Shown here: in pieces, positions 33,603 to 55,904 of the stretch
Layout of the letters: every line of letters begins with the position of its first letter
Numbering within the stretch: position 1 is the stretch's first letter
IMG/VR virus record: IMGVR_UViG_3300032298_001038
Span: 1 to 64,000 of that record
Length of the DNA stretch: 64,000 nucleotides
DNA from: a virus
Reading direction: 5' to 3' (one strand)
The notes under the pieces: generated by a model
The model's input: the letters and a program-made list of their open reading frames with translations, nothing else
What the model was told of the DNA's origin: nothing
Database searches by the model: none
Translations under genes and position numbers: made by a program

Positions 33603-33872
33603 CTATTTCGACCGGAAGCCGAATATGCCTTTAATAAACCGCACAGTGCCGCGCAGCAAAAGATACAGCCACGCGATAAAGCCGCTGATAGCAAAAAAAA
33701 CAATTGCCGGGACGCTCACGAATACCGGCCAGAGTTCCTTTAAGTTTACCTGACGCAGCGTTAACCACACACGCATCCACGGCGTACGATTCGGACTATC
33801 ATCGGGAATTGGCGGGATTACAGGCTGCGGGTCGGTCTTTTTGGGTTTTAACCAGCCGTCAATCCAACTCAT
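33603..33872 (-). CDS. Small membrane protein
   Basis: C-terminal TM helix. Confidence 0.6.
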   Translation of the reverse strand: MSWIDGWLKPKKTDPQPVIPPIPDDSPNRTPWMRVWLTLRQVNLKELWPVFVSVPAIVFFAISGFIAWLYLLLRGTVRFIKGIFGFRSK

Positions 33873-35836
33873 TTCGGCCTCCCAAACACTGTGTTCATGA
33901 AACTATCGCCGTAGCGTCCAATGACTTGGTCGACCATCGGCTCTTCTTCCATTTCATTGTTCATGGCTTTCATGGCCAGTTGATACCGGTAGTTGGGATC
34001 AAGTGTCGCCATGTAGCGCTGCTGGTTGATTTTGGCGTTGCGCATGAAGTCGCCGCGCTGTTTCACCTGCATTAACTGCTCTTGGATGTTTTCGGCCACT
34101 GTTTTGTCGTAGTTGTATGTCAGCGGCCGGTTTAACCCGTAAGAGTTGTATAGCGCGGTGGCATATGCGCTCCGGGGCTGACGATATGCGGCTTTGACAG
34201 ACTCAGGGATCGCGGTTGGCTCGACGTGGAACCGGAACTTCGTCGGCTTGTGCGTAATTCCCTTGTGGTACGGCTTCGGGTCGTCTACGTGCCAGTCTTT
34301 AGGCGCTTTAGCCATGAGCCGCCGCAAGATTTCAGTTTTGTGCGCGTACCTTTTGTTATCTGAATGGTCTTTAGCCGCGCGGAGTTCGTCGAGAATGCGC
34401 GCTTGGGATTCCGCCTGCTTCTTTTGCTCTTCTTGCTCGTCTGGCTGCTGGGGGTTCGGTAACTGCTGCCCTGACGGCGGAAGTGCGGGCGGAGGAACAA
34501 CACCGAAAGCCACGTCGTTTGTTACCGGCGGAGGCATTTCGGGCGGCGCAGTCAGGTCTTCGGCTAGTTCTGGCGGCTTTGGCGGTTTGGGAACTGGCGG
34601 AAGTGCAGGATTGTTGGCTGCTTTTTCAATCGCTTCTACTTTTTTGTAGTAGGACGCGTCTTCTTGCAGATGATCTTTGGCAATTTCTTTGGCGACTTGA
34701 CCATTGTTTGTGTGTTCGTGCTCATGCTGCGCTCCTGCGGCTAATGCTTTCTGAGAAATTTCCCGATCGGGAACATTGTCGGCTTTTCCACCCGGTAACA
34801 GGTCTTTTTGTCCCGAGCGGGAAAGTTTTGTTCCCGTACGGGCAAATTTTGCGGCTTTCTTTAACGCCGGCGCCAATAATGCTTTAATGTCTGGCCCCAT
34901 ATAGTCGGCGCCTTCGGGCAGTCCATGCGAAAGCGTGACCACAGCGTCAGAACCAACACTAGCGTTAAAGTTTCCGGGTTTGAGTTTGTGCTTGGGCAGT
35001 TCCAGATAATGCTCGTGCTGCCATCCTTCGCGCGGATCGTTACCTAAAGCGCGGAAAGCGGTTGGTTTGATTTTCACGCCGAGTTCTTCGAATAACTCAC
35101 GCGCAGCAGCCTGTTCTGGTGTTTCGCCCGTTTCGATACCGCCACCGATAAATCGCCGTTTGCCGATGTTTTCCGGCCACTTCGAGTTATTGAGCGTTTC
35201 CATCAAATACTGGTCTTTGTACGGCACGACGACGCGCACACGGGGCTGCGGGCTTTTAGCGGCGGCGGCTTTGCGCACACTATTGGCCTGCAACACGCTT
35301 TTCCGGCGCACGGCAACAGTAATGTGGAACGGGTGGCCATTTACGAACGGCTGCAACCCGTAACTCTTGCGAATAGCCGACAACATGGGCGACGAGACTT
35401 GCAGCGCCCATAACTTGCTGACGCCGTCGACATTCCGGGGGGTGATCTCTTTCAGGTGGCCGAGGGAGTAGCCAACCATGTGCCCGCGTTCGTTGATATT
35501 CTCCGGGCCGATCTTTTTGACTTCATCGGCAGTCATGACGGAGATATGCGCGTTCAAGACGTCGCTGGCTACGTTGGGCACGTTCATGGTGCCTGCCAGC
35601 GGAAGTTCGGCCCCGGGGGCAGTCATCGCGTCGTAGATGCCCCGGACAAGCGCGTTCGGGACGGAGAGAAGAAGCCAGCCGCTTTTGGCGACATACAGCC
35701 GGCCGGCGAGGGCGTGGCTGGTGGCGGCTTGTTTTTCATTACGCGCAAGCCAGCCGACAGCGTTGCCGATGCTGTATTCGCGTTGGGAGTTCAGCGGCTC
35801 GCGCCATGAACCGTCAAGAATAGAAAAGCCGTCCAT
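33869..35836 (-). CDS. Polyprotein: 2H phosphoesterase + Nudix hydrolase + DUF5661-like + two unknown modules
   Basis: HISV/HITV 2H motifs; complete Nudix box GGIETGETPEQAAARELFEELGV; EHEHT...IAKDHLQE...YYKK; K-x-A at each junction; no Cys. Confidence 0.85.
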   Translation of the reverse strand: MDGFSILDGSWREPLNSQREYSIGNAVGWLARNEKQAATSHALAGRLYVAKSGWLLLSVPNALVRGIYDAMTAPGAELPLAGTMNVPNVASDVLNAHISVMTADEVKKIGPENINERGHMVGYSLGHLKEITPRNVDGVSKLWALQVSSPMLSAIRKSYGLQPFVNGHPFHITVAVRRKSVLQANSVRKAAAAKSPQPRVRVVVPYKDQYLMETLNNSKWPENIGKRRFIGGGIETGETPEQAAARELFEELGVKIKPTAFRALGNDPREGWQHEHYLELPKHKLKPGNFNASVGSDAVVTLSHGLPEGADYMGPDIKALLAPALKKAAKFARTGTKLSRSGQKDLLPGGKADNVPDREISQKALAAGAQHEHEHTNNGQVAKEIAKDHLQEDASYYKKVEAIEKAANNPALPPVPKPPKPPELAEDLTAPPEMPPPVTNDVAFGVVPPPALPPSGQQLPNPQQPDEQEEQKKQAESQARILDELRAAKDHSDNKRYAHKTEILRRLMAKAPKDWHVDDPKPYHKGITHKPTKFRFHVEPTAIPESVKAAYRQPRSAYATALYNSYGLNRPLTYNYDKTVAENIQEQLMQVKQRGDFMRNAKINQQRYMATLDPNYRYQLAMKAMNNEMEEEPMVDQVIGRYGDSFMNTVFGRPK

Positions 35837-35852
35837 GGCAAACCCGTAACGA

Positions 35853-36053
35853 TTACTGACGGGTCATGACGGCTGTGGCGGCAGTTTTTTCAATACTCTG
35901 CCGGGTGTGTTCTGCGCCGTGAACATGGGCTGACAAAAACATCACCCAGCCGCATAGAAAAGTCATCACCCACGCCATGAGGCTCATCTGATTACGAATG
36001 TGTTGGTCGATCATCGTTGTTGGCATTGTCGTGAGGGCAGTGGAGTTCATCAC
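35853..36053 (-). CDS. Small membrane protein
   Basis: One TM helix; overlaps the upstream gene, so the start is uncertain. Confidence 0.45.
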   Translation of the reverse strand: MMNSTALTTMPTTMIDQHIRNQMSLMAWVMTFLCGWVMFLSAHVHGAEHTRQSIEKTAATAVMTRQ

Positions 36054-36372
36054 GGTCCCTTTCGTGATTGATGATGACTTTAATACCAGCGCCGGCCAGA
36101 AGCGAGATCAAAACGTCTGTGATCGTTGACCCGCCCATGCCTGCCAGCACGCAAATTCCTATTAATCCGTGAACGTTGGCGGCTTCTCGGTAGTTTTGAT
36201 ACCAAATCAGCGAAATGGCGAGGCCCAGAAAGCCCGAATTAAGCATAGCGCTGACAATGGCTAGTTTAGAAAGTTTGCGGCTAAAACGCAAAAGCGTCGC
36301 CAAGCCGGCAAACGCTGATACGCCAAAAGCCGCGGCAAATACGGATAAAGACACAATAGTCTCGTCGAACAT
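35992..36372 (-). CDS. Holin-like (LydA-type) multi-TM protein
   Basis: Three hydrophobic helices with small-residue patterns (SGFLG, AGMGG). Confidence 0.5.
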   Translation of the reverse strand: MFDETIVSLSVFAAAFGVSAFAGLATLLRFSRKLSKLAIVSAMLNSGFLGLAISLIWYQNYREAANVHGLIGICVLAGMGGSTITDVLISLLAGAGIKVIINHERDRDELHCPHDNANNDDRPTHS

Positions 36373-36413
36373 GTTTTTAACTAATGTGCGTAGGCCGACT
36401 TACGTGTGAAATA

Positions 36414-36647
36414 TGGTGTGTACCGCAAGCCCCCGCGATCCCCTTTCCGCGGGTCCGACCCTGACCGAAATCAGGGCTTCACGGCAACTTTCGAGGGCAA
36501 GAAATTTCGCCCTGTGTGGTATTTGCCGCGCCTCCGATCGTGTTCACGACTAAACCTGACCACGAAACCATGTTGCGCTCGCTGCATCCCTGCATTGGCC
36601 GCAACCCTAACCGACCGACCACCACGGCCAACTTACGGTACACACCA
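36414..36647 (-). ncRNA. Unknown ~234-nt multibranch structured RNA
   Basis: 16-bp closing stem plus at least 5 internal helices; three G-U pairs only on the minus strand. Confidence 0.7.
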
Positions 36648-36655
36648 ATTTTACA

Positions 36656-36692
36656 AAATCGCAGTGCGGCGACGGAAATGCCGCTGCGATTT
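36656..36692 (-). terminator. Terminator-like hairpin
   Basis: AAATCGCAG/CTGCGATTT stem running into TTTTG. Confidence 0.55.
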
Positions 36693-36729
36693 CCGCCATA
36701 ATTTGCCAAAGAACAAAAAACTGCGGCTA

Positions 36730-37185
36730 TTAGATATAGCGTCGCGGTTCGTCGCTGCATAGGCCGGCTGGTTCGGCGCTGGCGAGCCAGTCCGGCGGCG
36801 CGGTTTCAGGCAGCATCGCAATGGACCGGTCGATAAGTTCGTGCGGCGGCAACGTCCAGATAAATTGCGCGCTGGTCAGCGACATAAAACTATCGCTATT
36901 CAGAAAACAATGCGCATTAATGTTGCAGAGCGCGTCGATCGTTTCGGCGTTGTGGGCGCGGCACCAAATGCGCTGTTTAGACAGCATTGCCGGCGGAGCC
37001 ACGTTATACCCGCCGTCAAACGGTAGTAAAAAACTACCTTTGTGGAATATCACATCAATGCAGACGTGCCAGCCTTCTTTCAGGGCTTTTTGAACATACG
37101 CGAGCGTATTTTCAAGTTCAGGCTGGCGGCCGTCGGTGTTCCCCAGATGCGAAATAATAATGCCACTAAAAGCCTGCTTACGCAT
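36730..37185 (-). CDS. GDPD-like (glycerophosphodiester phosphodiesterase) domain protein, degenerate
   Basis: ISHLGN...ENT...AL..G..VCID pattern; HRG, EID and GHD catalytic motifs altered. Confidence 0.55.
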   Translation of the reverse strand: MRKQAFSGIIISHLGNTDGRQPELENTLAYVQKALKEGWHVCIDVIFHKGSFLLPFDGGYNVAPPAMLSKQRIWCRAHNAETIDALCNINAHCFLNSDSFMSLTSAQFIWTLPPHELIDRSIAMLPETAPPDWLASAEPAGLCSDEPRRYI

Positions 37186-37284
37186 TGCGACATCCCTGTC
37201 TTAACAGTCAACGCAAGATGTATAAATGGAAACGCCCATCGTACCACTGGCAGATGGGCGCGTCCACGCGGTTAGAAAATTTTG

Positions 37285-38319
37285 TCAGAGCACTTTCGCA
37301 GCGATCAGACAGCCGCGCGCAACCGCGTGAAGCGGGTCACTCGCGTGGCGAACTTCCTTGATCGGCAACGGGAAACCGTTCTCGACAATTTTTTGCTCGA
37401 ACATCTTGACGAACCCTTGCGCCTGCGTCGTGCCGCCGGCGAGGGCGATGAGCAGCGGATTCTTGAACTTGGGCAGCAGTTTGTGCCCGCGCAGTGCGTT
37501 CGCGAGTTGCTTCGTCGTATAGTCGATGAGCCGTTCGTAGTACGCACTCACCGCCGCGAGCACAGGATTGTCGTTCTGCTCGCCAATCACAAACTCGCCG
37601 TTCTCTTTCTCGGCCTGCACAACGCTGTCAGGCTCGCCGGTGGCGATGCCCGCCATGCGATCGATCCAGTCGCCGGACTTGGTGGTGGAGAACGTGACAG
37701 TCGGCTCGCCGTTGAGCATGACGCAGCAGTTCACCATACCAGCGCCCCACGAGAGCGCGACACCGGTGTAGTCGTCGTTCTCCAACTCCGAGTAGCACAG
37801 CGCTTCAGCCTCGTTGATGGCGCGGGCGCTGTAGCCTTGGCCATGAAGCACGGTCTTCACCACGTCTTCGTGATAGCCAACGTCAAACTCGTCGTCTTCT
37901 TGATCGACGGGCTGCGCGGGGATGCAGAACACCAGTTTCTCGTCAGGCTCGCTGGCGGTGCCGCACACCTGCTGAAGAATGTACGCCAGCACGCGCTTGG
38001 CTTCTTTTTCCTTGGGGCTAACTACGCCGCGGTACATCGGGCGCTTGGCAGAGTCATTGCGCTCGATCGCCTTCTCGATGGCGTCTTGGCCGAGAATGAT
38101 GAACGCGCCGTCGGCGTCCTTGACAAAAACTTTGCCTTGCAACCCCTTTTCGATCATCTTCGTCGCGACCGGAGTCGTGGGCTTGATAACAAAAAAAGCG
38201 TCACGGAAGTCTGTGTACTTCACGTAGCCAAACTTGTCGTCGCTCGTGTAACTCATCGGGGCTTCACCGTCGGAAGCCAAGACGATAAACGATGTACCGA
38301 CGTCTAAACCTTTCGCCAT
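37285..38319 (-). CDS. Actin-like ATPase (MreB/MamK/volactin-like)
   Basis: GLDVGTS (phosphate 1), INEA (connect 1), SWGAGMVN (phosphate 2), LAGGT (adenosine), ARG (connect 2). Confidence 0.85.
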   Translation of the reverse strand: MAKGLDVGTSFIVLASDGEAPMSYTSDDKFGYVKYTDFRDAFFVIKPTTPVATKMIEKGLQGKVFVKDADGAFIILGQDAIEKAIERNDSAKRPMYRGVVSPKEKEAKRVLAYILQQVCGTASEPDEKLVFCIPAQPVDQEDDEFDVGYHEDVVKTVLHGQGYSARAINEAEALCYSELENDDYTGVALSWGAGMVNCCVMLNGEPTVTFSTTKSGDWIDRMAGIATGEPDSVVQAEKENGEFVIGEQNDNPVLAAVSAYYERLIDYTTKQLANALRGHKLLPKFKNPLLIALAGGTTQAQGFVKMFEQKIVENGFPLPIKEVRHASDPLHAVARGCLIAAKVL

Positions 38320-41596: not shown

Positions 41597-41668
41597 CTGC
41601 CCGGGTAAGACTCGAACTTACAACCCCAGCATTAACAGTGCCGTGCACTACCATTGTGCTACCGGGCA
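41597..41668 (-). tRNA. trnN-GTT: tRNA-Asn (GUU), CCA not encoded
   Basis: Acceptor TGCCCGG/CCGGGCA; D-arm GCAC-AATGGTA-GTGC; anticodon arm CGGCA-CTGTTAA-TGCTG; T-arm GTAAG-TTCGAGT-CTTAC; discriminator G. Confidence 0.92.
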
Positions 41669-47251: not shown

Positions 47252-47531
47252 CGTCGCTCTCTGTATAGTTCGGGGACTTCTCGTGGTCTTGTTCGGGGCG
47301 GCAATGCCCGCCGTCGCAGCAGGTCTCGTTGATCGTCCGGCAGCGGGAGCAGACCATTTTGCCGCGCATGTCCATCAGATCGCCGCCGCAGACATAGCAG
47401 GTAATCATTGTAACATACTCCTTACTGCCGCGGACGTGGCGGGGAAGATACGGGCAGTTCACGCATTTGTTTCCGCAGCAGACTCCGTGTTGTAAAAGCA
47501 CCTGCCGGGAAAGCGGAGCGGGCCGCGTCAA
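47238..47531 (-). CDS. Cys-rich zinc-binding protein
   Basis: CCGNKCVNCPY (DUF5522-like) plus CxxC...CxxC...CC. Confidence 0.55.
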   Translation of the reverse strand: MTRPAPLSRQVLLQHGVCCGNKCVNCPYLPRHVRGSKEYVTMITCYVCGGDLMDMRGKMVCSRCRTINETCCDGGHCRPEQDHEKSPNYTESDDECF

Positions 47532-47875
47532 ATGTGCGCGGTGGTGAATCGCTGCTCGTAGGCTGCATAAATTTCAGCGTACGCCACGCCCCACGCCGCG
47601 TCGTGAGCGAGTTTATTAAAAGCCTCGTCCGTGGCGGCGTTGTCCAGCCGGTGATTCCACGCCCGGGCATGTGCCCACTCATGGATCAATACATCCATGG
47701 CGCGGCTCTCGTCCAGACCCTTGTCGATCTGGATGTGAAACTTTTTCCCCTGTTTCCAGCAGCGCCCTTCAAGTTTTGTTAACTTGACGCGGCGCACACT
47801 GACGGGGAACGCTGCGGCGCACTCATCCTTGAGCATCCGCAGGAGAGACTGGTATTGTTTAAATCGAGCCGCCAT
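47528..47875 (-). CDS. Small zincin-like metallopeptidase
   Basis: LIHEWAH (HExxH) and a downstream H. Confidence 0.6.
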   Translation of the reverse strand: MAARFKQYQSLLRMLKDECAAAFPVSVRRVKLTKLEGRCWKQGKKFHIQIDKGLDESRAMDVLIHEWAHARAWNHRLDNAATDEAFNKLAHDAAWGVAYAEIYAAYEQRFTTAHI

Positions 47876-47949
47876 GCTCCGTCTCCTGTAGGCATCCTTG
47901 CCACAGGGACGATTGTATCAGGCTGAGAAAGCCGCGACGAACGCTATTT

Positions 47950-50319
47950 TTACAGGCCAAATTGCGCCCGCAACCACGCATTTGCAACGGGATTTTGGGC
48001 TGTTTCTTCCGGCTCCGCGTCCAAAATACTTGATATCTTTACGCTCGGACCCTCGGGCGGAGGAGCGCCACCTTCTTCACGGAGAATGCGCCGGAACGCC
48101 TCGTTGATCTCTTCTTTCTCCGCGGTGAGTCGTTCCAGTACTTCGTCGCCGGTGCGCTGGCGTTTGGCGCCGAATAAATACTTCCCGATCAGGCCCGGCT
48201 CAGTCGATTCGGTGAGGTACCGCCGGACAAGCACGTTGCGCAGGTCTTCAGGCAGTCCCGCGTGGCTGTCAAAGCGCAGACCACGGCCGCGGGCTTGTTG
48301 GCTGCGGGCTTCGTTCCAGTGCGGGTCCAGAAGTTGAATTAAACTCGTGCCCTTCGTGCTAATCCCTTCCGCCGCGGCCGGCCCGAGAAGCAGGGCTTTG
48401 CTGCGCCCTTCGTTGTAGTCTTTCAGGGCTTTCTGCCGGTCTTTCAAGGGGATGCCGCCATGAAACACGCCATACGGAATCTTGTCCCGTTCAAGGGCCG
48501 CAGCATAGGGGTTCACGCCCGAATCAATGAAGTTCGAGTAGATGATGGCTTTCTTGCGCGGGTCTGATTTAATCGTCTCTTGAAAGTCCTGATACGCCTT
48601 TTGCATCTTGCTGGACTGCTCGAACGCCTTGATCGGATTCTTGTCTTTGCGGAACGCCTGCGTGGACAAACTCACTTGGCGCAGGCCGTTCAAGAACGAG
48701 TTCATCTTGGCCAGTTCTTCGCGCGACAGTGGGAACTCTTGGTCTAACTTCCACAAGAAGCCGGGCGGAATGCGCGTGCGAATGGCGTTCTGAATCTTCT
48801 GCTGTGCGTCGGACATCGGCACGCGCACGATCTCTTCATTAACGTTCACGCCTTCAGGAGTCTTGCTGGGGTGATAGTCCACTTTGCCCTTGAGCAGTTC
48901 ACGCAGTTCGTCTTCGTTCTTGACGTAGGCTTTCTCGCCCGGCTTTGCGCCCCTGAACCAACCCAACCAGCCCGGGCCGACTTTCTTGTAGCCCACGTAC
49001 TTCTCTTCGAACTGCTCCGGAGAAATCTTCTGGTTGTTCAGCATCGAGAGCAGGCTGGCCAAGTCGGTCGGCGCATTGGTGATCGGCGTGCCCGTGAGCA
49101 AGAGTAAACGCTTGGCTTGGCGCGCGGCCTCTGTAGCCGCGCGGGTGCTGGCGGCGTCGGGATTACGTAACCGGGCAGCCTCGTCCATGATCAGCGTGTC
49201 GGGCGGCTTCTTGAACTGCTTGCCCAAACCCAACCCGGTGTAACTCATGATCTCAGGCTTGGACCCGGTCGTGAACTTGTCGATCTCTTTCTGGAAGTTC
49301 GCGCGCAGACTCGCCGGGACCACGACGCCGTAGTCTTCTTGATATTTTTGTTTGGCGGCTTCGGCAGCAGCAATAGCCGAGAGAGACTTGCCGGACCCTA
49401 GGCCGTGATAGACCAGTAAGCGCGGGTCGTCGCCGGTGAGTTTGTCGGCAATGCGCTGTTGGTGCTCTTGGAGTTGGACTTCTGGTAATAAGTCGGCTTG
49501 CTTTTCCGGTTGTTCGTGTTGAATGTACTTAGCCGGAATTTTCTGCGTAGTGTACTGGTCGGTCATGAGCATATTGAGCGGCCACGGAAACAACGGCTGC
49601 ACAGCAAAGTCATCAGGGAGTTCTACTTTCAAGCGCGCGTCGCCGTACCCAGAGTTCAACTGCGGATGTGTGGCTAGAAACACCCGACGTTCGTAACCCG
49701 GAATGTCGGTCGGGACGCCGGAGTCAGCCCCAGTACCAGCAAATTCCGGGTCAAGACCGCGCTCCAAAATAGACTTGAGGTTTTTGCTGGCGGTGCCGTG
49801 ATAAAACGTTTTTGCAGCCTGCTTCTGCTGCGCCAGATGCCGCTGCGTGGCTTTGGTCTTGTACGCGTCCAGCATCTCGGCAACGCGCTGCTGCTCTTCA
49901 GGCGACACGAGCGTCGTCGGGTCAATTGCCCAGTTGCGCAGCGCCCAGCCGCGTCGGGGTGTGGGGTTCTTGGCAAACGGACCGCCATGGCGGGCTTTGA
50001 AACTCAGCCAGCGCTTGATCTGCCGGGTGTCTTCGTCCGGGATTCTGCGGCCACTGGTGTAACGCTTGTACCACTGCGCCCAGCCCTTGGGATCGTGCTC
50101 GCTGACCCATTCAGGCTTCCACTCGCCAAGACTGGCTAACCGCGGGCCTTGGCCGCGGTACAGCGCGTCGTACACGCCAAGGTTCTCCAGTTGCTCCGGG
50201 GTGTAGTCCGGCGCAAACGCGGCGTCGAGAGCCTGCAACTTCTCCGTGGCTGTCTTCAAGATAGCAGCCGGAAGATAGTCCGCGTCCAAGATAGATTTGC
50301 TGGGCTGCCTACTTGTCAT
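47950..50319 (-). CDS. Polyprotein: unknown domain + ADP-ribosyltransferase-fold domain + SNF2/SF2 helicase
   Basis: DPKGWAQWY.RY..GRR...D..QI.RW; YHGT...SIL..GL...VFLA...IP.KYI; HGLGSGKS, DEAA, TGTP and QARGRGLR; KQA at both junctions; no Cys. Confidence 0.85.
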   Translation of the reverse strand: MTSRQPSKSILDADYLPAAILKTATEKLQALDAAFAPDYTPEQLENLGVYDALYRGQGPRLASLGEWKPEWVSEHDPKGWAQWYKRYTSGRRIPDEDTRQIKRWLSFKARHGGPFAKNPTPRRGWALRNWAIDPTTLVSPEEQQRVAEMLDAYKTKATQRHLAQQKQAAKTFYHGTASKNLKSILERGLDPEFAGTGADSGVPTDIPGYERRVFLATHPQLNSGYGDARLKVELPDDFAVQPLFPWPLNMLMTDQYTTQKIPAKYIQHEQPEKQADLLPEVQLQEHQQRIADKLTGDDPRLLVYHGLGSGKSLSAIAAAEAAKQKYQEDYGVVVPASLRANFQKEIDKFTTGSKPEIMSYTGLGLGKQFKKPPDTLIMDEAARLRNPDAASTRAATEAARQAKRLLLLTGTPITNAPTDLASLLSMLNNQKISPEQFEEKYVGYKKVGPGWLGWFRGAKPGEKAYVKNEDELRELLKGKVDYHPSKTPEGVNVNEEIVRVPMSDAQQKIQNAIRTRIPPGFLWKLDQEFPLSREELAKMNSFLNGLRQVSLSTQAFRKDKNPIKAFEQSSKMQKAYQDFQETIKSDPRKKAIIYSNFIDSGVNPYAAALERDKIPYGVFHGGIPLKDRQKALKDYNEGRSKALLLGPAAAEGISTKGTSLIQLLDPHWNEARSQQARGRGLRFDSHAGLPEDLRNVLVRRYLTESTEPGLIGKYLFGAKRQRTGDEVLERLTAEKEEINEAFRRILREEGGAPPPEGPSVKISSILDAEPEETAQNPVANAWLRAQFGL

Positions 50320-53198: not shown

Positions 53199-55904
53199 TT
53201 ACATCACGCGGGCGCCCATTGTGGAGTTGAAGTTCGTGGGGCCTTGGCTCAGTCCGGCCGCGGGAGACGCCGACGGCATCGGCCCGGGCGCCGGAGACTG
53301 GACCGGCATCGAGTTCTGTAATGCAGGCGCCGGAGGGACACTGGCGCCCATTGTCGCGCTGGCATCCGCCGGGCCTTGCGGAATTACCGGCGATTGCGGT
53401 GCAGGATTCTTCGCGGCTTCAGCCTTGGCGGCCTCGACCAAGTCAGGCTGCATTGTCGCGTCGGTTGAAATACCCTTTTCAGGAGACCCGGCGCCTTGCT
53501 GTTTCGAGGCCAGATGCGCCTCTAACAGCGCACGAATCTTATCGCCGCCGAAGTAGCCAGCCGCACCGCCAGCCGCCCCGCCGACGGCCGCGCCACCAGC
53601 CAAGCCACGCAGCGCGCCCATCAAACGAGACCGACGCTTACGCCGGCCAGTCATCGGGTCTGTTTCGTGTCCCGGAGCCAGCGCGCCAAACAACGCACCG
53701 CCAGCGCCGAGCGCGGCGGCACCCGCACCTGCACCAAGGCCAGCGTCGCCCAAGTTGGCTGTCTTTACTTCAGGCTTTTTCTTCTTGGCGTCGTTCTTGC
53801 CAGCACGGCTTCCCAGATACGCGGCGCCACCAAGGAGACCTGCTGTTCCCAGACCAGCCGCAGCATACGGCGTGTACTTCGAGTTCATGATCTGCTGGAG
53901 CATTCCCGGCTCATCGCGCAGCGCCATATTTCCCAGCGCGCCAAACAACGCACCGCCAGCACCAGCAGCGCCTACGCCGCCTGTGATCTTGGCCCATTGC
54001 GGCAGCGCGTTCAGGCCTTCAGCAGCCCGACCGGCGTAACCCTTCGCGGCGTCTAACCCAGTGGTTGCAGCGCCAGAAGCGTTACGCCCCAGCCGTTGCA
54101 GCCGCGCCATCATGCGGAGATACGTGCTGATGGCCTGCTTTTCCATCGGATTGTTCGTGGCCTTCGTCAACGCGTACCAGTTCATACTTGCAGCCTTGGG
54201 CATCTCGTAGTCTCCTTCGTCTTCTTCACGTTGCGGGCGCTTCTTTTTCTTGTTACGGCGCGATAAATAATCAGCCAACGCAATGGCACCCAAACCACCG
54301 GCGCCAATCGCCGCATAGGGAGCGTAGGGCTTAAGTTGGTCGAGCATGGACGGCGGCGGGGGAGCGTCGGGCTTGAGCCACTTGAGCAAGTTACTGCCCG
54401 CGCCCATGCCAGCCCCCACAGCGTCCTGACCCTTCTGGCCAATGAAACTCAGCGCACTGCCGATGCCCTTACCGGCACCGATGCCCATGCGCTTGGCGGT
54501 ATCGAGGTTCTTGTTGAAGTACTCCCAATACACCTTGTCGTTCAGTTTTTCTTCCGCCGAACGGGGCCGAGAGACAGCCCCAGTGCCAGACGACGCCGAC
54601 ATGTCGGGGATCATCGCCGGCGGACGCCACTTGCCGCCGCCACTTGCAGCCGGAGCACCAGCAGGAGCCGGCGCATCAGCCATGTTGATTGGCAGGCCAG
54701 TCGTGGGCGAGATCGGCATGCTGGCGCTCGACGGGTCAAAGCCCGGAGGCGCGCTCATGGCCAGACCGGGCGAGGGCGGAATGCTTGCGCCCATCGTGGC
54801 ACTGGTGTTCAAGTCAGCATGCTTCTTGAGCAGTTCAGCGTAAGCCGCCATCTTCTCGGCCAGCGTCAGCGTTGTGTTATTTAAAAGCGCGTGGGCTTCC
54901 TTCTTTTTCGTCGCAGGAATGTTACCGTCTTCGTCTTCTGCCGGACCCACAAGCGCGTCGGCTAACGCTTTGCCGCCAGCGTGACCAGCCATGCCGCCGA
55001 ACGTGCCACCCACGCCGGCGCCCAGCGTCGCAGCATTACCGACGTTCGACAAACCTTGGTAACTCTTCGGCGCGCCGGTCAGGCCGATGACGGCGCCGCC
55101 ACCAAGACCAGCACCCACGGGAAGTCCGGCGCCAATGCCGAGTCCAGTTCCGGCGCCCATGAGCATTCCGCGGGCCATGCCGCGCAGTTTGTTCTTGGAG
55201 GTAACCGCGCCAGCAGCACCACCCACTGCGCTCCCGAGAACGCCAGTGCGCAAAAGGTAATTCAGCAGCAATTGGGTTTCGGGTTTCATCGCCTGCTTCT
55301 CGTTCTCGCTCATGGAAACATCCTTGTTAATACTCGATGATTTGTGTCGTTCATTATAGCGGGCACGTGCATCCGCCATATCAGAAGTTCGCTTACTAAA
55401 ACGTTCCGTGGGCCTGTAATATCTGGCCCGCGCGGTGGCTACGATCTTGTTGTTATCCCAGCCCAGAAAGTCGGCTTGGTACTGCGGGTCGGCTTCTAAG
55501 TCTCGCTTCGCGGCGCCCTCGGGCATTCTCCGCATGAGTTCTTCTAAACCTTCGTTCTTGGCTTCTCGGTCCATGCCGGCTGCAATGGCGGCCAAGCCAC
55601 CGGCGCCCAAGCCGCCGATCAGCGCGCCCATTCCCGAGTAACCTTTGCCGTCTGAACCGTGTGCAGTACCACCGATTGCGCTGCCGATTCCAGCCCCAAG
55701 TAACCCCGCCGGCACGCCAAAGATCAGGCCAGTCTTCAGGGGGCTGGCCATGAGGTCGGGAATCGGCGTCCCGTAACTCTGGAAGATGCGCGGCAGCCAG
55801 CGTTTCTTGCCGGCTTCCAGTGCGTCCTCCTCGTGGGGCGCTAACGTTCGGTGCGCCGAGATGTCAGGAATACCGCTCTCGGCACGTTTAATTTTCTCAC
55901 TCAT
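53199..55904 (-). CDS. Large modular Gly-zipper polyprotein (Cys-free)
   Basis: At least 6 K-x-A sites separating hydrophobic GxxxG modules; repeated SATMGASxPP motif. Confidence 0.7.
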   Translation of the reverse strand: MSEKIKRAESGIPDISAHRTLAPHEEDALEAGKKRWLPRIFQSYGTPIPDLMASPLKTGLIFGVPAGLLGAGIGSAIGGTAHGSDGKGYSGMGALIGGLGAGGLAAIAAGMDREAKNEGLEELMRRMPEGAAKRDLEADPQYQADFLGWDNNKIVATARARYYRPTERFSKRTSDMADARARYNERHKSSSINKDVSMSENEKQAMKPETQLLLNYLLRTGVLGSAVGGAAGAVTSKNKLRGMARGMLMGAGTGLGIGAGLPVGAGLGGGAVIGLTGAPKSYQGLSNVGNAATLGAGVGGTFGGMAGHAGGKALADALVGPAEDEDGNIPATKKKEAHALLNNTTLTLAEKMAAYAELLKKHADLNTSATMGASIPPSPGLAMSAPPGFDPSSASMPISPTTGLPINMADAPAPAGAPAASGGGKWRPPAMIPDMSASSGTGAVSRPRSAEEKLNDKVYWEYFNKNLDTAKRMGIGAGKGIGSALSFIGQKGQDAVGAGMGAGSNLLKWLKPDAPPPPSMLDQLKPYAPYAAIGAGGLGAIALADYLSRRNKKKKRPQREEDEGDYEMPKAASMNWYALTKATNNPMEKQAISTYLRMMARLQRLGRNASGAATTGLDAAKGYAGRAAEGLNALPQWAKITGGVGAAGAGGALFGALGNMALRDEPGMLQQIMNSKYTPYAAAGLGTAGLLGGAAYLGSRAGKNDAKKKKPEVKTANLGDAGLGAGAGAAALGAGGALFGALAPGHETDPMTGRRKRRSRLMGALRGLAGGAAVGGAAGGAAGYFGGDKIRALLEAHLASKQQGAGSPEKGISTDATMQPDLVEAAKAEAAKNPAPQSPVIPQGPADASATMGASVPPAPALQNSMPVQSPAPGPMPSASPAAGLSQGPTNFNSTMGARVM

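Follow-up and report, generated by a model that had tools for sequence, protein, structure and literature searches.

The locus and fold of a structured RNA

We analysed a window of 64,000 nt, the first 64 kb of IMG/VR record IMGVR_UViG_3300032298_001038, which is a 198,312-bp viral genome with direct terminal repeats. Positions 36414–36647 of this window, on the minus strand, hold a structured RNA whose family has not been described before and occurs once per genome in a clade of uncultured, presumably freshwater jumbo phages with genomes of ~200 kb. It is close to certain that the element is a real, new and phage-specific structured RNA encoded on the minus strand. A first-pass annotation, which had described the sequence and its boundaries as we find them, proposed a ‘novel non-coding RNA (ncRNA) or cis-regulatory leader’, and this proposal is supported by the covariation among homologues and by the lack of matches in Rfam. 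All genes around the element are on the minus strand, and the locus reads, in the direction of transcription, as follows.

37285–38319, minus strand: volactin-family actin-like ATPase (PF25216, E = 1.5e-58)
36730–37185, minus strand: 151-amino-acid (aa) protein of unknown function (phrog_34507)
36414–36647, minus strand: the whole structured RNA, an inverted repeat at the DNA level (minimum free energy z-score, covariance model, homologues)
35992–36372, minus strand: 126-aa membrane protein, possibly holin-like, directly 3' of the RNA and in the same orientation
between the 126-aa and 655-aa genes, minus strand: 66-aa open reading frame (ORF; gene calls)
33869–35836, minus strand: 655-aa polyvalent protein with 2H-SAK, NUDIX and DUF5661 domains (PF22547, 7e-9; PF00293, 4.5e-11; PF18905, 1e-7)

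The minimum free energy of the minus strand over 36414–36647 is −110 kcal/mol, compared with a shuffle mean of −85 (z = −5.74; 0 of 200 shuffles as stable), whereas the plus strand folds more weakly (−86.1 kcal/mol, z = −4.77). Covariation was assessed in an alignment of 42 distinct homologue sequences (A1) and was strongly positive: RNAalifold proposed 66 pairs, 47 of them with compensatory double changes, and once a pseudoknot is included, 51 of the 71 pairs carry such changes. Canonical pairs fill 96.7% of the pair cells, against 36–43% when the 3' partners are slid by 1–3 columns, and the observed paired share, double-change counts or covariation score were reached in 0 of 500 shuffles. 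All homologues come from one clade, and the covariation counts thus include inherited changes; since the slid-partner control retains this relatedness, the structure is still clearly separated from the background despite the one-clade sampling.

The fold consists of eight helices (P1, P2, P3, P4, P5, P5a, P6 and P7) arranged around a purine-rich and G-rich, invariant junction, and a 5-bp pseudoknot, GUGGU/ACCAC, joins the P2 loop to the P5 internal loop. Its parts, from 5' to 3', are these.

36630–36647, minus strand: P1 5' strand, the inner AAGUU nearly invariant (covariation)
36613–36629, minus strand: P2, a 5-bp hairpin (covariation)
36618–36622, minus strand: 5' half of the pseudoknot, GUGGU, in the P2 loop (covariation)
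36605–36612, minus strand: J2/3, the invariant unpaired junction strand GGUUAGG(G) (invariant columns G44–G49 of A1)
36577–36600, minus strand: P3, a variable stem with the invariant loop CA-N-GGA-N-G (covariation)
36585–36592, minus strand: P3 loop, CAGGGAUG (invariant letters C, A, G, G, A, G)
36538–36565, minus strand: P4, a hairpin with the conserved internal loop GGUCAG ... G-CG-G--CAC (pairing and many invariant columns)
36531–36535, minus strand: J4/5, the invariant junction strand GG-N-GG (invariant G columns)
36481–36529, minus strand: whole P5 region, in which 36523–36529 pairs with 36481–36487 (covariation)
36516–36520, minus strand: 3' half of the pseudoknot, ACCAC, inside P5 (covariation)
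36494–36513, minus strand: P5a, a hairpin inside P5 (covariation)
36487–36492, minus strand: conserved GAAAGU inside P5 (alignment A1)
36458–36477, minus strand: P6, a hairpin of variable sequence, often with a UUCG loop (covariation)
36432–36453, minus strand: P7, a hairpin that directly adjoins the P1 3' strand (covariation)
36438–36443, minus strand: invariant end of the P7 loop, GGGGAU, with the second invariant GGA of the RNA (alignment A1)
36414–36431, minus strand: P1 3' strand, with the inner GGCUU, followed in many lineages by a U-rich tail (covariation)

Compensatory changes were found in 14 of the 16 pairs of P1, the closing stem, the length of which ranges from 9 to 21 bp among lineages, and in most pairs of P2 (4/5), P3 (6/8), P5 (6/7), P5a (5/6) and P6 (7/8), as well as in three of the five pseudoknot pairs (for example, U-A replaced by C-G). 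P4 and P7 are more constant, with three of nine and three of seven pairs compensatory, respectively, and four invariant pairs in each. The share of paired cells is 100% in P2, P5 and the pseudoknot, 99.3% in P7, 98.9% in P4 and 98.4% in P5a.

Most of the structure that had been drawn from the single sequence is thereby recovered: the TGCA-GGGA-TGCA hairpin is the tip of P3, CGGCAA/TTGCCG with the nested AGGGCGA/TTGCCCT corresponds to P5 and P5a, GCCCTGA/TCAGGGT to P6 and CCCGCG/CGCGGG to P7, all of them with covariation support, and the suspected GTGGT/ACCAC pseudoknot proved to be paired in every sequence. The listed helices are indeed present in the window, but P4 and the basal part of P3 had been overlooked, and the TTGGCCG/CGGCCAA helix is specific to the window, the conserved helix at this place being the local hairpin P2. 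The free ACCA 3' end of an alternative fold is likewise particular to this genome, with relatives reading ...CACACCTTTT and similar; hence, the idea that the RNA is aminoacylated is unsupported. As ARAGORN found no tRNA-like or transfer-messenger RNA (tmRNA)-like gene at the locus and the ACCA end is not conserved, we rejected a tmRNA or another tRNA-like aminoacylatable RNA.

The assignment to the minus strand, initially made from three G-U pairs, holds across the alignment, in which conserved G-U pairs include U25-G238 (40 of the 42 sequences), G221-U230 (42) and G149-U171 (33). Two adjacent conserved U-G pairs are located at the junction end of P1, and an invariant G-U pair closes the P7 loop. 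These invariant or near-invariant G-U pairs identify the minus strand as the functional one, which excludes an antisense or DNA-level reading. The homologues share no conserved reading frame, and their lengths fall into all three classes modulo 3; a hidden ORF was rejected on this ground.

Invariance is concentrated outside the helices. Sixty-four columns of A1 are invariant, mostly in unpaired strands, namely, GGUUAG (J2/3), CA-GGA-G (P3 loop), GGUCAG (P4), GG-GG (J4/5), AAU-C-CAC and AAGU (P5 internal loop) and GGGGAUC (P7 loop). The middle base of J4/5 can be A, G, C or U, so that there is no conserved GGA in this strand. Among the unpaired columns, only the GUGGU/ACCAC pseudoknot stood out in pairwise covariation; additional tertiary pairs sought in this way were discarded, because the analysis returned hundreds of spurious C/U-G/A correlations that stem from shared ancestry.

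Distribution and genomic context of the RNA family

Searching IMG/VR with the two flanking proteins, we fetched 93 homologous loci, and a profile search found the full-length element in all 93, between the same genes. A pattern composed of the invariant motifs matched 94 viral and 21 metagenome stretches. All ~115 viral and metagenomic contigs that carry the RNA belong to one phage clade and share the same context; the Ga-numbered metagenome samples among their sources are presumably, from their appearance, of lake or estuary origin. The covariance model R1, built from A1, matched the element in the window with 245 bits (E = 5e-80) and gave 176–254 bits in 94 of the 94 loci tested. Six near-complete ~200-kb genomes of the clade, this genome and five others, were found by R1 to contain exactly one copy each; the element accordingly is present once in the 198,312-bp genome, with no paralogues found by the model. 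R1 had no match in the 485-kb genome of the out-group phage LR745208. A second motif pattern, run against 185,579 prokaryote genomes, produced a single match, in Kluyvera ascorbata, which we consider a chance occurrence because it is located inside a 543-aa coding ORF and shows no profile similarity.

None of the 4227 models of Rfam 15, with the gathering threshold of each family as the minimum score, matched the window except for tRNA-Asn at 41597–41668. At more permissive thresholds, the locus (36200–36900, E ≤ 10) yielded nothing, and 15 diverse homologous loci (E ≤ 1) yielded nothing but tRNAs. In the literature on phage structured RNAs and phage CsrA, we found no description of this RNA. 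Having found neither an Rfam match nor a published description, we treat the RNA as a new family. The novelty lies in the family and its fold, which known families do not accommodate, and the function may still be of a known kind.

In all related contigs, conservation spans the whole RNA and is tighter than that of the flanking genes. At every locus with enough flanking sequence, the 126-aa gene comes next downstream, and the gene for the 2H-Nudix protein after it; in the window, this 655-aa polyvalent gene is the next large gene of the same unit. The upstream neighbour varies: several lineages lack the 151-aa gene, with the RNA located 20–50 nt behind the volactin gene, and in others 2–3 kb are inserted upstream of the RNA. 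The 126-aa protein matched no family in Pfam or PHROG; a language-model search placed it beside phage holin clusters (score 0.90), and its holin-like nature is a lead taken from that search alone. The tRNA-Asn gene at 41597–41668 is 5 kb from the RNA in this genome. Many relatives have a tRNA-Asn(GUU) gene within the same unit as the RNA, flanked by the 126-aa and 2H-Nudix genes (L011:3494-3567, L045:3494-3567, L104:923-996, L120:2424-2498 and L201:559-633).

No related cultured phage was found. At the DNA level, the comparison with 50,697 phage records gave nothing but a 41-nt match to Shigella phages (E = 2e-3), which we regard as chance. Among phage records, the volactin had no matches other than two uncultured huge phages (33% identity), and none was obtained for the 655-aa protein. 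Within the clade, volactin is highly conserved (70–97% identity).

Transcription signals and RNA ends

Three features precede the RNA.

36703–36712, minus strand: conserved intergenic box TCTTTGGCAA (TCTTTGACAA in relatives; conservation upstream of the RNA)
36655–36693, minus strand: terminator-like hairpin of the upstream gene, followed by UUUUG (fold of 36654–36715, −20 kcal/mol)
36648–36655, minus strand: extended −10-like box TGTAAAAT, with the hexamer TAAAAT at 36648–36653

A TAnnnT hexamer with at least four of six matches to TATAAT (TAAAAT, TAAACT, TATAAT and similar variants) precedes P1 in 61 of 62 distinct homologues. It is positioned 20–23 nt upstream of the P2 loop in 49 of the 62, and TG is present just upstream of it in 55. 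We found no −35 element at sigma-70 spacing upstream of the box. The arrangement TG-n-TAnnnT matches an extended −10 box of the sigma-70 type, from which we infer a promoter role: the RNA would be made from its own extended −10 promoter and would form the 5' end of the transcription unit, with the transcript probably starting near 36641 ± 3. In the window, P1 extends into the box with its outermost pairs, and, therefore, not all of these may be transcribed. One lineage keeps the box and has an extra hairpin inserted between the box and a shortened P1; the retention of the box despite this insertion agrees with a transcription start that is fixed and a 5' end that is structured. In this lineage (L101, L103, L112, L132, L138, L163 and L181), the extra hairpin is GC-rich, P1 has 9–12 bp and there is no U-rich tail, and several members have GGGAUG or GGAUG around the downstream start codon.

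The terminator-like hairpin upstream of the RNA, already noticed in the first-pass annotation, is real and is likely to be the terminator of the upstream unit. In many relatives, a hairpin of differing sequence is seen by eye, unscored, at the same place before the box. The TCTTTGACAA box is conserved where a gene separates volactin and the RNA (e.g. L102, L110 and L148) and lies 30–47 nt upstream of the −10 box, with the hairpin between the two. We rejected it as a −35 element because of this distance and because it is absent where the RNA directly follows volactin; it was not found as a general promoter motif in the window.

At the 3' end, 42% of the 62 sequences have a U-rich tail after P1 (5 T or more within 8 nt), compared with 16% of controls, and ~30% of the lineages have no U-rich tail at all. 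With the tail enriched yet partly absent, P1 is probably the end of the RNA in some lineages, whereas elsewhere the RNA forms the 5' part of a longer mRNA. P1 together with the tail could terminate the transcript in many lineages, giving an RNA of ~225 nt; otherwise, transcription would be expected to continue into the holin-like gene, the tRNA-Asn gene in many relatives and the gene for the 2H-Nudix protein. The spacer between the RNA and the 126-aa start codon (42 nt in the window, as previously noted) ranges from 9 to 62 nt and is unconserved. Duplexes between the P1 3' strand and the spacer were no better than those of shuffles in 57 sequences (mean z = −0.04; 1 of 57 below −2). An anti-P1 expression platform is, thus, unsupported; the pairing available in the window (−10.2 kcal/mol, z = −0.86) is neither significant nor conserved. 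The spacer of the window (36380–36413, minus strand) contains ACGUAAGUCGGCC, a near repeat of the 5' strand of P1/P2, and several lineages have a recurrent (C/G)GUAA(A/G)U-like motif in their spacers.

A possible CsrA link and other candidate functions

The first-pass annotation had pointed to a loop that fits the consensus of CsrA sites, and this match extends across the family. In 55 distinct sequences, the P3 loop letters C, A, G, G, A and G are invariant and two positions vary; the former coincide with the letters that are fixed in the CsrA/RsmE consensus CANGGANG, the latter with its N positions. The P3 loop thus presents GGA in a hairpin loop within CANGGANG, as high-affinity CsrA sites do. 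CANGGANG is reportedly the RsmE/CsrA consensus described by Schubert et al. in 2007, and RUACARGGAUGU, with which the loop is in agreement, is said to be the consensus that Dubey et al. obtained in 2005 by SELEX (systematic evolution of ligands by exponential enrichment).

Furthermore, the phage encodes a CsrA homologue of 67 aa, outside the window (genome positions 156245–156445, minus strand; L188:1459-1662), which matches PF02599 with 49.6 bits. It aligns from the N-terminus to Bacillus subtilis CsrA (1t3o) and Pseudomonas fluorescens RsmE (2jpp), keeps the MLVLSRK start and presumably has an Arg at the position of R44 of Escherichia coli CsrA. All five related ~200-kb genomes that we tested encode the homologue as well, that is, 6 of 6 near-complete genomes, and LR745208, the one distant huge phage tested, has neither the RNA nor CsrA. 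A tblastn search with the phage CsrA had no match among the 50,697 phage records. Genome-wide, we counted seven hairpin-type CsrA sites, where Markov simulations predict 2.5 (maximum of 6 in 30 simulations). In addition to the P3 loop of the RNA itself, they include the following.

37189–37200, minus strand: CsrA-type hairpin GACAGGGAUGUC on the ribosome-binding site (RBS) of the 151-aa gene, 7 nt before the start
47891–47902, minus strand: CsrA-type hairpin that presents AAGGAU, in the 5' untranslated region (UTR) of a 115-aa HExxH gene
55317–55328, minus strand: CsrA-type hairpin site on the RBS of a 704-aa ORF, 7 nt before the start
genome 172894–172905, minus strand: CsrA-type hairpin site (genome-wide scan)

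The GACAGGGAUGUC hairpin is a near-perfect match to the CsrA SELEX consensus, and GAC-A(A/G)GGA-N-GUC is conserved before the 151-aa gene in relatives. The 115-aa HExxH (metalloprotease-like) gene, ORF 47528–47875, has a 5' UTR (47876–47950, minus strand) with a TACAAT −10-like box and the AAGGAU hairpin followed by a GGAG Shine-Dalgarno sequence; judged from these motifs, this would be the typical layout of a CsrA-repressed mRNA.

Because of the exact consensus loop, the phage-encoded CsrA and the CsrA-type sites on the RBSs of neighbouring and other phage genes, we tentatively favour a CsrA-docking regulatory RNA of a phage Csr circuit, a reading that we regard as possible rather than probable. 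In such a circuit, the RNA would serve as a protein-docking regulator: the P3 hairpin loop with its CANGGANG and the P7 loop with its invariant GGA would bind one dimer of a CsrA-family protein, which could be the phage-encoded CsrA or that of the host. With two invariant GGA, each RNA would be suited to a single CsrA dimer. By binding CsrA, the RNA would sequester it from phage mRNAs with the same hairpin on their RBSs, or, alternatively, the RNA and the downstream genes would themselves come under the control of CsrA.

The bacterial CsrB, RsmY and RsmZ RNAs, sponges with 4–22 GGA sites, are the closest points of comparison. Our RNA resembles them in its CANGGANG hairpin loop, in being encoded alongside CsrA and mRNAs with CsrA-type hairpins on RBSs, in its putative own promoter and in the U-rich 3' end of many lineages. 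It differs from them in being phage-encoded, compact, pseudoknotted and centred on a junction, with many invariant positions outside GGA; it has no match to the Csr/Rsm families of Rfam, and no GacA/UvrY box was seen by eye upstream of it.

Several observations weigh against CsrA docking. GGA is not enriched in the RNA (6.2 per RNA compared with 5.7 expected from composition), and only two GGA positions, in the P3 and P7 loops, are invariant, which is unlike the multi-site sponges CsrB and RsmZ; a multi-site CsrA sponge was rejected on these counts. The large conserved core, beyond presenting the two loops, is left unaccounted for: 64 invariant columns, a pseudoknot and a junction far exceed the needs of a CsrA docking hairpin and look more like the core of an aptamer or ribozyme. 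The co-occurrence of the RNA and CsrA within one clade amounts to a single evolutionary event and, hence, is not independent evidence. The excess of CsrA-type hairpins is modest, as up to six were obtained in the 30 simulations, and GGA-in-loop motifs also resemble plain Shine-Dalgarno sequences. Finally, a cis-acting leader would explain equally well why the RNA is always found immediately before one gene.

A cis-acting leader of this kind, that is, a riboswitch or sensor with the junction as an aptamer for a small molecule or ion, is the main rival, although we consider it unlikely. The ligand might be, possibly among others, a nucleotide-derived signal relevant to the 2H-Nudix enzyme, and P1, by folding or not, would act as the switch between a stop at the U-rich tail and read-through into the holin-like and polyvalent genes. 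The element lies directly behind the conserved promoter box and precedes the same downstream gene in the same orientation in ~115 contigs, with a varying upstream neighbour, and in the ~30% of lineages without a U-tract the RNA must be part of an mRNA. The fold also has what is expected of a conserved aptamer, namely, a multi-helix junction closed by P1, with tandem conserved U-G pairs at the junction end of that stem, and invariant nucleotides concentrated in the junction strands, the internal loop and the long-range pseudoknot. This pattern is known from large aptamers, such as those for lysine, cobalamin and FMN; with these and the M-box class, the RNA also shares its location between a promoter and a downstream operon in the same orientation. 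However, the RNA matches no riboswitch model in Rfam and has no detectable expression platform, the P1 3' strand pairing with the spacer no better than chance, and the spacer itself is unconserved, with a U-rich tail in only part of the family. Moreover, P1 is unusually long and variable for a riboswitch, should form with or without ligand and, enclosing 200 nt, would make an odd terminator stem. The synteny is weak evidence, given that the gene order of the whole region is conserved anyway.

Improbable, in our estimate, is a trans-acting RNA that self-assembles or catalyses a reaction, like GOLLD, ROOL or the phi29 pRNA. GUGGU/ACCAC could then be an intermolecular kissing contact that builds multimers, or, alternatively, the core might represent a new ribozyme. 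Whether the loop-loop pairing is intra- or intermolecular cannot be told from covariation, an ambiguity that arose for pRNA, too. As with GOLLD and ROOL, and also raiA and OLE, the RNA has a complex conserved fold, with eight helices and 64 invariant columns, and it is phage-specific and present in one copy per genome, with an adjoining tRNA gene in many relatives. However, Rfam scans, through which alone these RNAs were compared, revealed no similarity in sequence or model to GOLLD, ROOL, raiA, OLE, pRNA or any ribozyme family; the element, with its ~230 nt, does not approach the size of GOLLD or ROOL and is restricted to one jumbo-phage clade, and the data contain no hint of a cleavage site or of multimerisation.

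More improbable again is a scaffold or decoy in RNA damage or repair, by analogy with the bacterial Y RNAs (YrlA/YrlB) of rsr-rtc operons. The RNA would act with the 2H-Nudix ‘Swiss-army-knife’ protein and tRNA-Asn against anticodon nucleases of the host. In favour of such a role are the constant linkage to the 2H-SAK/NUDIX protein, the tRNA-Asn(GUU) gene situated between the two in many relatives and the ends paired in a long, protective stem, as is typical of the RNAs of stable ribonucleoprotein (RNP) complexes and of Y RNAs. As with Y RNAs, enzymes of the RNA-repair type and a tRNA gene are found nearby. The link is one of adjacency only, however, and the 198-kb genome contains no TROVE/Ro60 gene (PF05731), a search that did give matches in control genomes. 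Neither a Y RNA or YrlA match in Rfam nor a tRNA-like or tmRNA-like module was found at the locus. In addition, polyvalent proteins of this kind are thought to be delivered with the virion (PMC5512222), which would need no RNA partner. The genome also lacks a reverse transcriptase gene (PF00078), with which a retron or another reverse transcriptase-associated ncRNA would be expected to occur, and we rejected Y RNA proper and retron readings on the absence of Ro60/TROVE and reverse transcriptase, respectively.

The layout of promoter, ncRNA, often leaky terminator and potentially toxic gene, here the holin-like membrane protein, also recalls the type III toxin-antitoxin systems (ToxI, toxN). 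The resemblance is one of layout only: the RNA is one complex fold rather than a set of tandem repeats, and the downstream protein is not an endoribonuclease.

That the locus encodes no functional RNA and is instead a DNA element (a cruciform or protein-binding inverted repeat), a hidden gene or a chance structure is close to refuted, for although the outermost P1 pairs overlap the promoter box and may be untranscribed, and both strands fold better than shuffles, the invariant G-U pairs would become A-C mismatches on the other strand or in DNA, eight separate helices covary, there is no conserved reading frame, and conservation spans the full length in all related contigs and is tighter than in the flanking genes.

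CsrA docking and the other functional readings are not mutually exclusive, as a CsrA-binding loop could have been grafted onto an RNA whose core acts otherwise. A more far-reaching picture, which we hold to be doubtful, is that of a self-contained viral Csr circuit, with the phage CsrA, a small mRNA regulon and a rigid, pseudoknotted RNA that presents two GGA loops to one dimer, or of an RNA in which the conserved junction is a small-molecule aptamer, the RNA thereby integrating CsrA binding with a metabolite or immune signal to control when the holin-like and 2H-Nudix proteins are expressed. A rigid scaffold with two GGA would be a different design from the floppy multi-site sponges of bacteria, and we know of no previous description of a self-contained viral Csr circuit.

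To conclude, in this work, we describe an RNA family new to Rfam, with unusually clean covariation and defined boundaries over ~230 nt. Large, intricate RNAs with dozens of invariant positions are rare, and such RNAs have repeatedly proved to be ribozymes, riboswitches or RNP cores; to our knowledge, the RNA biology of uncultured, presumably freshwater jumbo phages such as these is essentially unknown. If the CsrA link is true, it is not just a single factor that these phages import but a whole post-transcriptional circuit, consisting of the protein, its targets and an antagonist RNA; otherwise, the RNA is still a strong candidate for a new class of aptamer or ribozyme.

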